A stretch of DNA of 64,000 nucleotides from Armatimonadota bacterium (GCA_037442365.1 JBBIQK010000003.1:40526-104525); one strand, 5' to 3'; counted from the first letter of the stretch, positions 45,263 to 49,885 are shown. Numbers and translations are program-made. The notes: a model not told the origin generated them from the letters alone.

Positions 45263-46174
45263 TTAGCGCGCGCCGAAGTTGAAGAGTACCTGCAACAGGT
45301 CGGCGTCGTCTGCCACGCCGTCACGAGTGATGTCGGCAGGGTGATTGCAACCCTGCGCGCCGAAGTTGAAGAGTACCTGTAGCAGGTCGGCGTCGTCCAC
45401 GATCCCGTCGCAGGTGGCATCGGCGGGGTGATAGTCGCTGAGAATCGTGAGGTAGTCGAAGCTGGCGACAGGCGCGGGGCTGCCCCCGCCGCCGCCCAGA
45501 TCGACATACAGCCCGACCTGCCCGCCCAGCTGCGCCACGGTCTGCAGGGCGGGGAAATCGCTCAGCGGGCGCGGCGAACCTGCGCACTCGCGCCAGTGCG
45601 CGCCGTCCTCGCGATCGTAATAGAAGCGTACCAGCCCCGTGTCGGGTTCGTAGCGAATCATCAGGCGCGCTGTATCGCCTGCGCTGGGGCTCCACACCGC
45701 GCCGCTCAGCCCCGCCCACTGGTAGACGCCGTTCCACTCGTGCCCGCCGCTGACCGAAAGCTGGTAGCTCTGGTCGGGCAGGTAGACCATGTGCAGGTTG
45801 AAATAATGGTCGGCGTCGCGGAACACAACAAGCCCTGCCTGCAGGTAGCCGTCCGACGCGCCGTTGCGCATCAGGCGCACGCGCGTTTCAATCACCCATG
45901 CCCCGCGCAGCGCAGGCACAGACACGCTCGGCAGATTGCGCAGGCTGTTAACACTCTGATACAGCGCGCCCGCCTGCGCAGTGATTTGCAGATGCTCGGC
46001 AGTGAAACTCACTCGCGTCGAGTCGAGCGTGTTGACGGGCGCGTTCCCTGCAACGACCCAGCTCCAGCGGTTCTGGGGGTCCAATCCGCCCAGAAAGTCG
46101 TCCATCAGGGGCTGGGCGCACACGCGCCCGCCAATCGTCAGCATCACCAGCGCCAGACTCCAGAGGGTTCGCAT
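45263..46174 (-). CDS. Secreted ConA-like beta-sandwich protein with dockerin-like C-terminus
   Basis: DDF...[27 protein letters not shown] twice; paralog of 47741..48670. Confidence 0.75.
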
Positions 46175-46177
46175 GGC

Positions 46178-46858
46178 TCACAAAGGCTGGTACTCGAAGC
46201 GGCTGATAATCACCTCTACCTCGCGTCCGTTGGTAGGCGGCTCGCCGCCCAGCAGCCACAGGTTGATGCGCGGGTTTTCGTCGCCGGGCGGCGGCACGAA
46301 GTTGCCCGTATAAGTCCACTCGGCGACGATGGCGCTCGCGCTGGACGGCTGCGGGCGATGCCCCCGCACACTGCGGAAATAGAGACGCCCCGGCTCCCAG
46401 CGGAACCAGTGTACCGACTGGCGGATGTTCGCGGGCCACTGGAAGGTGTGCTGGGGATGTCCCGCATCGTGCGGGCGGATGGTGTAGTAGCCGTTCGGTC
46501 CCGCAGGTCCTTGAAACCGCGCGAACTCGATGTCGATTTCGCGGTAGCCGAAATCGCGCGTGTCGCTCCAGGTGAACAGCCCCAGCACAATCTTCGGGTC
46601 GAGGTTATGCACCTCGCTGTCGAGGTAGAAGCGATAGGTTCCGTAGCCCAGCGAGCGTGTGCAGATGACCTCGGCGCAGTCCCAGCGGCTGCCCGTGCGC
46701 GTGATTTTCATATGCAATCGCCCGCGCGCGTCCAGCCACACATTGCACTCCGCGTCCGAGAAGTAGTTCGGTCCCGGTCCGACGGGCGTCGTGTGCCGCT
46801 TGACGCGCCAGGTGTAGCCGGAGAAGTTGATGGTCCGAGAGTATTGCATCGCGCTCAT
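46178..46858 (-). CDS. GH16-like glycoside hydrolase
   Basis: GYGTY, GLFTW, EIDIE catalytic-type motif; no signal peptide seen. Confidence 0.75.
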
Positions 46859-47682
46859 CGGATATTCGGGTTGTTCTCGTCGGGGTTGTCGCCGCCGAGT
46901 TGCCAGTGCCACGGGATTTTGACGGCGCCGCGCCGCATGGCTTTCACATGTCCATCTGCCCAGACCAGCACGGCGACCTTGCCGCCGTGTCGGTAGCGCA
47001 CCTGGAAGGCGGCGTTCAGATTCGCGCCCAGCCCGTTGAAGTCGCGGTCGATGCGATCCCACTCGGCGTCGGTGCGCGCGGGTTGCCCGCCCCAGCCGTT
47101 AATCAGTCCGGGCGTCCACCAGTAGAGCGCGCCGCAGTTGCCCGACCACTCCTGATTCTGCGTGCCGTCGCCGTACACGATGGTCTCCGCCGGGTGCGTC
47201 AACAACGCCAGCGGCGCAGGCGTGCAGGGGTTCAGGTTGTTGGAACACTGCCAGCGGACATTGTTCGCGCTCAGCACGGTACCGTTGCCGCCGACGCGCT
47301 CGCTCATGCTGTACGCCAGCGCGTTGCGATAGGTCGCCGACGGGCAACTGCGCACCTGCGGCGCGGGACGCTGCCCGTTCGCGCCATCCGCGTAGGTTTC
47401 GAACCTGCCCTCGCCCATGTACGGCGAAATCAGGAAGTGCCAGATAATCTCGCGCCCCAGCGTGCTGAAGGCGTTCAGGTAGCCAATCGGGAAGGTCTCG
47501 TCGTAATCCTGCAGGTACATATTCGTCGCCAGCCCGACCTGTCGCGCGTTGGAGGCGCACTGGGTCTGGCGCGCCTTCTCACGCGCCTGCGCAAATACCG
47601 GGAACAGAATCGCCGCCAGAATCGCGATAATCGCAATCACCACCAGCAGTTCAATCAGTGTAAAACCGTTGCGCTTCATCAT
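46855..47682 (-). CDS. Prepilin-type DUF1559-like protein
   Basis: [10 protein letters not shown]...; [15 protein letters not shown]. Confidence 0.92.
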
Positions 47683-47705
47683 AGAACCCTCCATCGGTTA
47701 TGAGA

Positions 47706-47734
47706 ACGGGGCGCGTTGCGTTGCCGCGCCCCGT
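47706..47734 (-). other. Intercistronic stem-loop
   Basis: ACGGGGCGCG / CGCGCCCCGT, no long U tract. Confidence 0.65.
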
Positions 47735-47740
47735 GTATGA

Positions 47741-48670
47741 TTAGCTGCCCGCGCCGAAGTTGAACAGCACCGCCAGCAGGTCGGCGTCGTCCACCGTGCC
47801 GTCGCCGTTCACATCCTCATCGAGGCAGTCGCCGCTGCTGCCAAATGCAAACAATACTGCCAGCAGGTCGGCGTCGTCCACAATCGCGTTGGCGTCGACA
47901 TCGCCCACAGGCAGCACGGGCAGGTTCGTTTCGAAGTAATCGAACTCGAACGGTTGCGCCAGCCCGCATCCGCAGGCGTTGTCTGTGTAGACGCCAATCC
48001 GCGCGCCCTGCGACAGCATGTTCATGATGTGCTGATAGAAGCCGCTATCGGGGTAGTAGCGCCCGCCGTTGAAGCCATCGTACTCGATCCAGCCGCTGGT
48101 GCTGGAGTTGCGGAACTGCACGACGATATGCGGGTCTTCACCGCCCACGCGGGCGATGCGCACACCCACCCAGCCGCCGTCGGGCGTCCAGGGATTGGTC
48201 ACCCGCTCGCCCCAAGCAAATGTGTCGTCCGTCTCAGAGTTCGTAGACCCATTGATGGTGTCGGTCTGGTCCGTGGCGTTGCGCGTAATCAGCACCTGGA
48301 AGTAGTTTTGTGCGCCTGTGGTAATCAGAATGCCCACCTGCGTGTAGTTGTTGACTGGTACGGTACTCCAGTCGGTGCGGAAGACGGTCTCGATGTACCA
48401 CTCGTTGGGGATGTCGCCGCTGACGCGCAGGGTGGGCACATTTTTGTGCGAGTTGAACGCCTGAAACATCCCGCCGTCGCGCGTGGTGATGGTCATCGAG
48501 CTGCCGCCGAACGAAACGGCGTTATCGAACAGGGTACAGAACGGGTCGTTGTTGGGGAGTTTCCAGCTCCACTGCAGGCTAAAGCCGCCGTTGAACTCAT
48601 CGCGCGTTTGCACATACGCCGTGCTGAGCAGCGTAATCGCCGCCAGTAGGGATACGAGTGTTCGCTTCAT
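47741..48670 (-). CDS. Secreted ConA-like beta-sandwich protein with dockerin-like C-terminus
   Basis: Signal peptide, DEFNG...WSW, WYIET, QVGI, FDYF; DDADLLAVLFxFG twice. Confidence 0.78.
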   Translation of the reverse strand: MKRTLVSLLAAITLLSTAYVQTRDEFNGGFSLQWSWKLPNNDPFCTLFDNAVSFGGSSMTITTRDGGMFQAFNSHKNVPTLRVSGDIPNEWYIETVFRTDWSTVPVNNYTQVGILITTGAQNYFQVLITRNATDQTDTINGSTNSETDDTFAWGERVTNPWTPDGGWVGVRIARVGGEDPHIVVQFRNSSTSGWIEYDGFNGGRYYPDSGFYQHIMNMLSQGARIGVYTDNACGCGLAQPFEFDYFETNLPVLPVGDVDANAIVDDADLLAVLFAFGSSGDCLDEDVNGDGTVDDADLLAVLFNFGAGS

Positions 48671-49767
48671 TGTTTTGAACCTCCTTCGGTTGAGAATGCA
48701 GGCTGGAGAGTCGCTGGGGATGCGAGGGCATACGCAGGCGCCACGCTGTGGCGCACCACCAGCGCGCCGTTGATGAGGATGCGTTGCGGGTGCGTGTCGC
48801 CCGTTTCTATCTGGTGCAGGAGTTGCTGCGCCGCGAGGTAGCCCACCTGATAGCGGTCATGGCGGACGGTCGTGAGGGGGATGCCCATGCGCTCCGCCCA
48901 CGACGAGTCGTCGAAGCCCGTGACGGAGAGGCGCTCGGGCACGGCGATTTCCAGCGTGCGACACTGTTGCAGGAAGCCTATCGCCATGTCGTCGTTTGCA
49001 GCCATCACGACCGTCGGCAGTTCGGACTGGCGCAGGAGTTGTTCCGCCGCACGCGCGCCCGATTCGGGACCGTAGTCGCCCTGCAACACCCACTCCTCGC
49101 GGATGGGGACGCCATAGCGATCGAGGACTCGTCGAAACGCCTGCTCGCGCTGATGCGCGCTCCAGTGCAGCGGGTGCCCCTTGATGTACCCAATCGCGCG
49201 ATGTCCCTGCTGGATGACCCACTCGACCAGCATCGTCATCGCGCTGGTATTGTCGATGTCGATGTGCGACAGGCGGTACTCATCGGGCAGTGTGCTGCCG
49301 ACCGCAACCGCAGGCAGGCTCGAATAGTGGCGCCATTCCAGCAGCGGCGACCCCATCACAGGCGCAATCAGCACCACGCCATCGATGGAGCCGTTGTCAA
49401 TCCGTCGCCAGACCGCGGCGGGGTCGCTCGTGCGCGGGGTAATCAGACGGATGTCGTAGTCGCGCGGCTCCAGAAACGCCAGGATGCCGTCCAGCACATC
49501 GTGGGCGTAGAGGTTATGGGTCAGGCGGGCATGCTGCGGGTCCAGCACGACGCCAATCGTCGCGGTGCGACGACGCGCCAGACTGCGCGCGATAGAGTTC
49601 GGGCGGTAGCCCAGCTCCTGCGCCGCGCGCATCACCTGATGCACCATATCCTCGCGGTACAGATGGCTGCGTCCCTGCAGAATGTTCGAGACGGTGGTAA
49701 TCGAACATCCGGCGCGCTCTGCCACATCGCGTAGCGTCGGTTTGCCTCGCATCGTTTCAGACTCCAT
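48667..49767 (-). CDS. LacI-family transcriptional regulator
   Basis: TLRDVAERAGCSITTVS, YRPN--ARSL, TGFDD. Confidence 0.95.
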   Translation of the reverse strand: MESETMRGKPTLRDVAERAGCSITTVSNILQGRSHLYREDMVHQVMRAAQELGYRPNSIARSLARRRTATIGVVLDPQHARLTHNLYAHDVLDGILAFLEPRDYDIRLITPRTSDPAAVWRRIDNGSIDGVVLIAPVMGSPLLEWRHYSSLPAVAVGSTLPDEYRLSHIDIDNTSAMTMLVEWVIQQGHRAIGYIKGHPLHWSAHQREQAFRRVLDRYGVPIREEWVLQGDYGPESGARAAEQLLRQSELPTVVMAANDDMAIGFLQQCRTLEIAVPERLSVTGFDDSSWAERMGIPLTTVRHDRYQVGYLAAQQLLHQIETGDTHPQRILINGALVVRHSVAPAYALASPATLQPAFSTEGGSKQ

Positions 49768-49776
49768 CGCCTGCTA

Positions 49777-49885
49777 TGGAAACGCTTCTAAAATGCGTCC
49801 CTGCACAAGTTCGAAACTACCCTCTCTGGCTATGGAAGCGTTTCCAAGCATCCCTATTATAGCACACTTTCGGCGCAGATGTCAA
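49777..49885 (-). promoter_or_regulatory. Consensus sigma70 promoter plus two LacI-type operators
   Basis: Minus strand TTGACA-N18-TATAAT with TG extension; TGGAAACGCTTCTA (49777) and TGGAAGCGTTTCCA (49833). Confidence 0.85.

Follow-up and report, generated by a model that had tools for sequence, protein, structure and literature searches.

Within a 64,000-nucleotide (nt) stretch of the genome of Armatimonadota bacterium GCA_037442365.1 (the window), positions 45263–49885 hold five genes, all on the minus strand, for a LacI/GalR-family repressor, a first ConA-like protein (ConA-A), a prepilin-type protein of the DUF1559 family, a GH16-like hydrolase, and a second ConA-like protein (ConA-B). 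The host is an uncultured thermophilic hot-spring bacterium of the Fimbriimonadales (Armatimonadota), with a genome of 2.82 Mb that is 99.5% complete. We tentatively favor reading these genes as a self-repressed, sugar-inducible glycan-foraging operon in which the pilin captures or takes up the glycan. An earlier, sequence-only reading had proposed a LacI-controlled glycan locus of this composition; its parts list and control logic hold, every element that it listed being present (Table 1).

The gene for the repressor is the first gene of the operon that it is predicted to repress, and the promoter is overlapped by two putative operators. The promoter matches the consensus at 12/12 positions and has an extended −10 element (TG). 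The operators, O1 and O2, are 14-bp LacI-type palindromes with a central CG, predicted from sequence only. O1 and its near-copy O2 are the sole sites within one mismatch of the palindrome on either strand of the 2.82-Mb genome, and the regulon search with the operator thus gave no further genomic site at that threshold. The TTGACA...TATAAT elements and both operators are kept in 10/10 orthologous loci from four genera with unrelated upstream flanks; a site stands at the O1 position in all of these loci, and a second follows 37–57 nt after O1 in each. Hence, the consensus promoter and operator pair described in the sequence-only reading are both present and conserved. The repressor itself matches the PF00356 helix-turn-helix (HTH) profile (E 4.3e-11; 42.9 bits, cut-off 27) and PF13377 Peripla_BP_3 (E 3.2e-34; 118.8 bits), and it falls below the cut-off of every NCBIfam equivalog, the best being RbsR (160 bits vs a cut-off of 382). 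Other perfect or near-perfect intergenic palindromes, found at C2:68355 and C76:6647 (TTGAAGCGCTTCAA) and at C15:29976 (TTGAAACGCTTCAA), are probably operators of another LacI paralogue. The TTGAAGCGCTTCAA copy at C2:68355 lies 50 nt upstream of the DUF1559 gene that is the closest paralogue of the operon's pilin gene.

Comparison with related genomes shows that the five-gene block is inherited as a unit. The gene order is intact at nine loci from genera g1, g2, g4, and g5, with flanks that change outside the genus, and the block thus spans four genera of one Fimbriimonadales family, with promoter, operators, and the position of an intercistronic hairpin kept as well. The GH16-like gene occurs in 24/28 other genomes of this family and in 0/32 genomes of the order's other four families. 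Identity across the other three genera amounts to 82–86% for the pilin, 71–75% for the GH16-like enzyme, 54–61% for LacI, and 52–62% for ConA-B, making the pilin the best-conserved protein of the block. A separate draw of public genomes placed the pilin gene directly upstream of the GH16-like gene at 22/23 Fimbriimonadales loci, the 23rd ending at a contig edge. This fixed position and top conservation, across genera with differing flanks, show that the pilin is not a chance neighbor. ATGA overlaps join lacI to the ConA-A gene and the pilin gene to the GH16-like gene, and the ConA-B gene starts after a spacer of 3 nt.

In genus g6 the block is split between two convergent operons. One holds a GH16-like gene (here with a clear signal peptide), ConA-B, and LacI; the other has its own LacI together with ConA-A and a DUF1559 gene that is not orthologous, and there lacI, ConA-A, and pilin keep their order even though the GH16-like gene is in the first operon. 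Among 56 loci of other lineages, a pilin gene stands directly upstream of the GH16-like gene at one only, L108. The L108 pair is orthologous to that of the window, with 61% identity over 270 residues for the pilin (the best paralogue in the present genome reaches 38.7%) and 55% for the GH16-like enzyme, which is leaderless there also. The pair is followed by the gene of a 659-residue DUF6785/DUF6784 polytopic membrane protein (L108:1837–3816, plus strand), a candidate transporter.

The DUF1559 protein is firmly identified as a true prepilin and as part of the operon, in agreement with the sequence-only reading. Both PF07963 N_methyl (E 1.7e-9; 37.3 bits) and PF07596 (DUF1559/SBP_bac_10; 45.9 bits vs a cut-off of 23.3) are matched over cut-off, the latter at profile positions 2–64 of 268 only, and TIGR02532 gives 35.4 bits. 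The class III signal is complete, with a short basic leader, G at −1, F at +1, and E at +5 (G/FTLIE), followed by a hydrophobic alpha-1 segment. The family is vast: 241,105 cluster representatives were found at E ≤ 1e-3, and 32 at 1e-30. In the AlphaFold2 (AF2) model (75 sequences; mean predicted local distance difference test [pLDDT] score 78), an alpha-1 helix at residues 9–59 is combined with a small sheet and insertions. The top 18 matches of a VIA-align all-against-all structural search were all type IV pilins or pseudopilins, at Z-scores of only 2.8–4.9, and Foldseek and sequence matches to solved structures aligned the pilin N-terminal helix alone. C42, C113, H232, and D243-G244-H245 are nearly invariant and mark a conserved site. 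Twelve of the 120 best longer relatives carry F5/8-type-C (discoidin) domains, a known type of carbohydrate-binding domain, which is a hint of sugar binding at the level of the family; four gave regulator–pilin fusion calls. A complex prediction for ConA-A (20–309) and the pilin (28–275), run without controls, scored 0.00 twice and weighs neither way. A −1 frameshift fusing the pilin and GH16-like proteins was rejected, as no slippery heptamer was seen by eye before the stop.

The label GH16-like was chosen because no GH16 family model is matched significantly: the protein has no match to any Pfam family at E ≤ 10, PF00722 included, and its NCBIfam BglS match (E 0.0098) is far below cut-off. 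The GH16-like call of the sequence-only reading is supported by other evidence. About 125 residues, including E-I-D-I-E-F, align with the Bacillus lichenases 1mac and 1byh (E 7e-4 with the single sequence, 1.6e-4 with a profile), and E107, D109, and E111 are invariant in 12/12 aligned relatives (alignment A1). The enzyme thus keeps the complete E-x-D-x-E motif and is firmly predicted to have an intact active site. At E ≤ 1e-3 the enzyme has 2348 relatives, for some of which NCBI gives the name “glycoside hydrolase family 16 protein.” It belongs to a widespread subfamily of its own, in which the proteins of other phyla have a leader or an additional N-terminal domain. The enzyme of the window lacks a signal peptide, which had not been foreseen. 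Within A1, 7/7 relatives from Acidobacteriota, Planctomycetota, and Gammaproteobacteria have a leader and 5/5 cassette-type proteins have none. Leader status was read directly from the sequences; automatic signal-peptide scoring of 30 PF10091 and 80 GH16-like loci was discarded, since it overlooked evident short leaders and took in spurious out-of-frame sequence.

ConA-A and ConA-B are, with firm support, exported ConA-fold proteins (export being predicted from their signal peptides) that bear a surface tail found genome-wide. The AF2 model of ConA-A (mean pLDDT 89.6) is a ConA-like sandwich of the lectin/glucanase type, with a tail of two helices. Its 402 Protein Data Bank matches at E ≤ 1e-3 in Foldseek are led by the non-catalytic C-terminal domain of GH43 beta-xylosidases (E 2e-9), a DUF1349 protein (3mep), and the lectin Emp47p, and its ESM Atlas neighbors carry GH43_C2 or DUF1349. 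The family is tiny: a search of 5.8 billion proteins yielded 30 at E ≤ 1e-3, and all source-named members come from Armatimonadota or Fimbriimonadales metagenome bins. ConA-B is 33% identical to ConA-A (blastp 2e-33) and has weak Pfam matches to GH43_C2 (E 1.6e-3) and DUF1349.

The tail is a duplicated C-terminal Ca-loop/helix segment with the motif D-x-N/D-x-D-G-x-V-D-D-x-D-L-L. Both proteins had been read as “ConA-dockerin”; the modeled fold of ConA-A bears out the first half of that name, and the second holds as a dockerin-like repeat and fails by the Pfam cut-off. PF00404 is below cut-off in ConA-A and ConA-B (E 0.13 to 2.9), the isolated tails giving E 0.13 and 0.7 (12.9 and 10.6 bits vs a cut-off of 22.9), and paralogous tails in the same genome exceed it (28.4 and 24.4 bits). 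About 83 otherwise unrelated proteins share this 53-residue double repeat, at the extreme C terminus in 77/80 cases of a first pass; examples in the window lie at 54256–55368 (−), 32473–34125 (−), and 6827–7291 (+). A search for cohesin (PF00963) gave 0 matches at E ≤ 0.1 in the genome. Its occurrence on so many unrelated proteins suggests that the tail acts as a general surface tag, probably one for surface placement or sorting that is used across the lineage.

Between the ConA-A and pilin genes lies a stem-loop (z −1.9; 8/200 shuffles fold equally well). A GC-rich hairpin of 9–14 bp follows the ConA-A stop in 10/10 loci, and since its place is kept and the stem sequences differ, a selected RNA structure is indicated. 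A role as an intrinsic terminator was rejected: the stem-loop has no U-tract and is absent from the terminator scan.

Crude gene calls gave 2437 genes in the genome, of which 62 were prepilin-type and 83 dockerin-tagged. Four are LacI-HTH genes; a pilin gene lies no more than two genes away from two of these, and three directly adjoin a dockerin-tagged gene, for which rough chance estimates are ∼5% and ∼0.1%, respectively. As a side observation, LacI-HTH genes occur in 12/12, 3/3, and 10/12 genomes of families f1, f2, and f3 (up to 15 per genome) and in 1/12 of f5. One further LacI gene of the present genome heads a sister cassette on C17, in which lacI is followed by the gene of a 70-residue single-pass protein, a DUF1559 gene, and a leaderless PF10091 “glycoamylase” gene that overlaps by 4 nt. 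The order lacI–pilin–PF10091 recurs at 17/30 loci of f1, f2, and f3, the others having contig ends or no pilin. In the 41 genomes of the order, a prepilin open reading frame (ORF) stands directly after lacI at 16/30 of the best-scoring lacI loci; many of the 16 are mutually orthologous, so that they document recurrence and not 16 independent events. At four loci, the pilin gene overlaps the following gene of a signal-less enzyme by 4 nt, the enzyme being GH16-like, PF10091, an amidohydrolase, or an HD protein.

Some pilin genes stand in other arrangements. One of the 30 PF10091 loci (L183:808–2517, plus strand; genome G019) holds a 569-residue ORF that combines a complete DUF1559 prepilin with PF10091 from residue 79; it represents a natural modular pilin or, alternatively, a deletion or assembly artefact in one metagenome bin. 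At least seven DUF1559 genes are paired, at 8–57 nt, with a gene for a small single-pass membrane protein of 57–80 residues (C7:21522, C7:38599, C20:41757/42908, C31:184, C39:10199, C2:68406, and C17:45540). At C1:85671–90348 (−), an MFS transporter gene precedes three consecutive pilin-like genes (622, 613, and 268 residues), and giant genes come next on the same strand; two of these (865 and 1545 residues) lack Pfam matches, and a third encodes 2126 residues. The cluster is possibly a separate fibre system.

Our preferred, though tentative, reading would work as follows. Without inducer, LacI on O1 and O2 would keep the operon nearly off, and an oligosaccharide from the target glycan would release it. 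The ConA-like proteins would be secreted and, anchored to the cell surface through their tails, would bind the glycan there. The DUF1559 protein, cut by the single prepilin peptidase, would join a type IV filament machine as a substrate-specific pilin and fill the place of a solute-binding protein or SusD, capturing glycan, whole or in fragments, at the envelope for transfer inward. Imported oligosaccharides would then be cleaved in the cytoplasm by the signal-less GH16-like enzyme, and the hairpin after ConA-A would make the mRNA level differ between the operon's two halves. Machinery of the required type is encoded: the genome has eight T2SSE ATPase matches over cut-off, one prepilin peptidase (Peptidase_A24), and two secretins, and the window contains a PilC/T2SSF gene (38875–40083) and a second DUF1559 gene (3302–4180), both of which the sequence-only reading had seen.

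Capture and uptake are favored because the pilin lies between regulator and hydrolase, because it is repeatedly coupled to leaderless enzymes, because classical importers are scarce, and because relatives carry carbohydrate-binding modules (CBMs) and a lectin-bearing pilin is on record. The importers amount to one TonB-dependent receptor, two SBP_bac_8, and six ABC-permease matches genome-wide. The claim that there is no SusC/D, ABC, or MFS gene is correct for the block and true of the locus only, as MFS and a few ABC genes lie elsewhere in the genome. A wider version, which we consider doubtful, would make DUF1559 pilins the substrate-recognition units of pilus-based glycan import throughout the Armatimonadota, replacing SusC/D and ABC solute-binding proteins: each operon's pilin would slot into shared type IV machines, the ConA proteins would dock via their cohesin-less tails as a split lectin-module pilin, and retraction would feed the now-cytoplasmic GH16-like enzyme.

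Several observations weigh against uptake by the pilin. Its model shows a plain pilin fold, in which neither a periplasmic-binding fold nor a lectin or CBM is predicted, and the block has no linked transporter in this genome. The DUF6785/DUF6784 protein was considered as the missing transporter and rejected, since its three paralogues here (C21:8141–10120, C63:11518–13407, and C90:2667–4655) are not beside pilin, LacI, or GH16-like genes; one lies beside a dockerin-tagged BNR/sortilin protein and one after a di-haem peroxidase/beta-helix protein, and the term DUF6785 was not found in a literature search. The 209 neighbor proteins of the 62 pilin-like genes are mostly housekeeping in a Pfam scan, and a glycan-active gene (GH13, PF10091, GH2, GH99, heparinase II/III-like, NAGPA, or GH16-like) lies within two genes of 7/62 pilin genes, a count made without a genome-wide background. 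Enrichment of carbohydrate-active enzymes around pilins is not decisive because only these 209 proteins were annotated. Thus, the association of DUF1559 with LacI and such enzymes, which the sequence-only reading had suggested looking for, takes the form of LacI–pilin–hydrolase operons that recur in the order, and most pilins stand among housekeeping genes.

The link to cytoplasmic enzymes is also imperfect. Several pilin-coupled PF10091 enzymes of f2 and f3 appear, by eye, to keep a leader, which means that coupling is not tied to cytoplasmic enzymes, and the f1 loci L172 and L180 have a signal-less PF10091 enzyme without an upstream pilin. A link between leader loss and pilin coupling holds for the GH16-like gene but not cleanly for PF10091, and was rejected as a rule. 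With regard to expression, RNA-library contigs of ∼90%-identical relatives, from four hot-spring or mat runs that belong to four studies, partly cover the lacI, ConA-A, pilin, and GH16-like genes, and one contig per run bridges the pilin/GH16-like junction (4/4 runs); these contigs give no strand and do not prove a single transcript, and DNA carry-over is possible. The runs contained just 5–6% of the sampled words. Depth peaks at 47565–47906 and 45342–45512 were rejected as signs of operon expression, as they reflect the pilin N terminus and dockerin-like repeats that recur in many genes.

A first alternative, rather unlikely in our estimation, is that the DUF1559 protein helps with export or display, as a cargo-specific pseudopilin of a type II secretion-like machine that is made together with its cargo. 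It would push the ConA-like proteins through a secretin, of which two are present, or hold them on a short fibre via their tails, a form of cohesin-free anchoring that would suit a genome with 83 tail-bearing proteins and no cohesin. The ConA-A gene adjoins the pilin gene in all genera, g6 included, exported GH13 and GH2 enzymes adjoin pilin genes too, and the leaders that several f2/f3 pilin-coupled hydrolases seem to keep fit the same picture. Genome-wide, a pilin gene is directly beside a dockerin-tagged gene in 9/62 cases vs 3.9 ± 2.0 with shuffled labels (63/3000 shuffles reach 9), a weak enrichment that disappears at ±2 genes (11 vs 7.4 expected; 388/3000 shuffles reach it). The minimal conserved unit elsewhere is lacI–pilin–hydrolase without a dockerin-tagged gene, signal-less enzymes cannot be type II cargo, and we know of no precedent for private pseudopilins per cargo.

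It is also conceivable, though we find it improbable, that the pilin is co-regulated and mechanistically separate, serving the envelope in some general way (in twitching, in biofilm formation, or in adhesion to particles or mats) that is switched on when sugar is present, and that the GH16-like and ConA-like proteins do the glycan work with transporters encoded elsewhere. The plain pilin fold of the model, the size and diversity of the family, the MFS and ABC genes outside the block, and the placement of most pilin-like genes among unrelated genes are all in line with this. Such a role would leave unexplained why the pilin has a fixed operon position with a 4-nt overlap, why the orthologous pilin/GH16-like pair was kept while the enzyme diverged to 55%, why the same design recurs with another hydrolase family (PF10091), and why the pilin is more conserved than regulator or enzymes. 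A last alternative, which we consider very unlikely, is that the block remodels a beta-glucan-type matrix or envelope polysaccharide made by the cell itself. The pilin and the lectin-like proteins would then be components of the matrix or of a fibre, and the GH16-like enzyme would trim precursors. This would suit the signal-less enzyme, the common dockerin-like tails on surface proteins, and the lack of a transporter in the block. Against it, neither the block nor its conserved neighbors include glycosyltransferase or export genes, the sister cassette has a PF10091 hydrolase under the same design, and self-regulated operons under a LacI-family repressor typically serve sugar catabolism.

Table 1. 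Features of the operon, with positions counted from the first nucleotide of the window
Feature	Coordinates	Strand	Description
Sigma-70-type promoter	49856..49885	(-)	TTGACA-18 nt-TG-n-TATAAT
Operator O1, TGGAAACGCTTCCA (predicted)	49833..49846	(-)	just 3' of the -10 box
Operator O2, TAGAAGCGTTTCCA (TGGAAACGCTTCTA on the + strand) (predicted)	49777..49790	(-)	just 5' of the lacI ribosome-binding site
lacI, LacI/GalR-family repressor, 366 residues	48667..49767	(-)	first gene of the operon
ConA-like A (ConA-A), 309 residues	47741..48670	(-)	signal peptide, ConA-fold beta-sandwich, C-terminal dockerin-like double repeat at ~256-308
Intercistronic GC-rich stem-loop	47706..47734	(-)	10 bp, -25.1 kcal/mol
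DUF1559 prepilin-type protein	46855..47694	(-)	likely start 47682
GH16-like hydrolase, 226 residues	46178..46858	(-)	no signal peptide; E107-I-D109-I-E111
ConA-like B (ConA-B), 303 residues	45263..46174	(-)	paralogue of ConA-A; signal peptide and dockerin-like tail

On either side of the block, the neighboring genes are kept within the genus only. Downstream, guaB lies 35 nt after the ConA-B gene. Divergent from the lacI promoter region, 49992–52820 (+) encodes a 942-residue protein with a leader-like N terminus, weak VWA7_N/Het-C-like matches, and two beta/gamma-crystallin repeats. Farther off in the window, a Pup-proteasome system is encoded at 19093–22465 (−), with a Pup ligase (PF03136, E 1e-153) and two proteasome subunits. 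Elsewhere, C34 (L062:485–4543) encodes a 1352-residue class II ribonucleotide reductase with LAGLIDADG inside the barrel, which suggests an intein, and a free-standing LAGLIDADG_2 gene lies on C5 (L038:11–646).

DUF1559-type prepilins are among the largest protein families lacking an assigned role, with 62 copies in this 2.8-Mb genome, and the operon gives one member a testable role in polysaccharide handling, next to a recognizable enzyme, two lectin-like partners, and mapped putative operators. The proteins are expected to be soluble and thermostable and hence amenable to bench tests, and useful natural variants exist, namely the split two-operon form with a leadered enzyme, the form followed by a membrane protein, and the sister cassette with another hydrolase. 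If the pilin does capture or import glycans, this would explain polysaccharide feeding in bacteria with very few classical sugar importers and would define a further kind of polysaccharide utilization locus (PUL). A literature search, supplements excluded, found no description of regulator–pilin–glycanase operons.

Among known systems, the LacI/GalR sugar operons of Firmicutes, Thermotogae, and Actinobacteria share 14-bp CG-centered palindromes over the promoter and a repressor encoded with a hydrolase and extracytoplasmic binding proteins. In the present operon, however, lacI is the first gene of the operon that it is predicted to repress, there is no ABC permease or solute-binding protein, and a DUF1559 prepilin stands between regulator and hydrolase. 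The SusC/SusD PULs of Bacteroidota likewise combine co-regulated surface glycan-binding proteins with a hydrolase and draw on a large paralogous repertoire, comparable to the 62 pilin-like genes here, but they differ in regulator type and anchoring, and a SusC/SusD pair is missing from a genome that has a single TonB-dependent receptor. The enzyme resembles the GH16 beta-glucanases represented by the Bacillus lichenases in the aligned region around the catalytic motif and differs in having neither a PF00722 match nor a leader. The tails share the duplicated Ca-loop/helix segment and, in the model, the two helices of cellulosomal dockerin type I, whereas their sub-cut-off scores, the genome without cohesin, and the ∼83 unrelated carriers set them apart.

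The pilin has the class III leader and, in its model, the long alpha-1 helix and small sheet of type IV pilins and pseudopilins such as PilA, GspG/EpsG/PulG, ComP, and the minor pilins, and the machinery genes are present in the genome, but its globular part matches no solved pilin closely (Z ≤ 4.9), and its gene lies in a catabolic-type operon instead of a pilus operon. A lectin-bearing pilin is known from Streptococcus sanguinis, whose minor pilin PilC is reported to carry a glycan-binding lectin module (bioRxiv 10.1101/2022.08.25.505150); unlike PilC, the operon's pilin has no such module in cis. The passages of the literature that mention DUF1559 assign it no function: one names DUF1559/SBP_bac_10 as a solute-binding protein family (PMC2754498), and another describes it as the largest paralogue group of a model planctomycete, with 68 members, two of them essential (PMC10632474). 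With this family of the Planctomycetes, the pilin shares a match over the Pfam cut-off and massive paralogy; it differs in that only the first quarter or so of the profile, as given above, is matched and in the fixed, sugar-regulated context in which its gene is kept.

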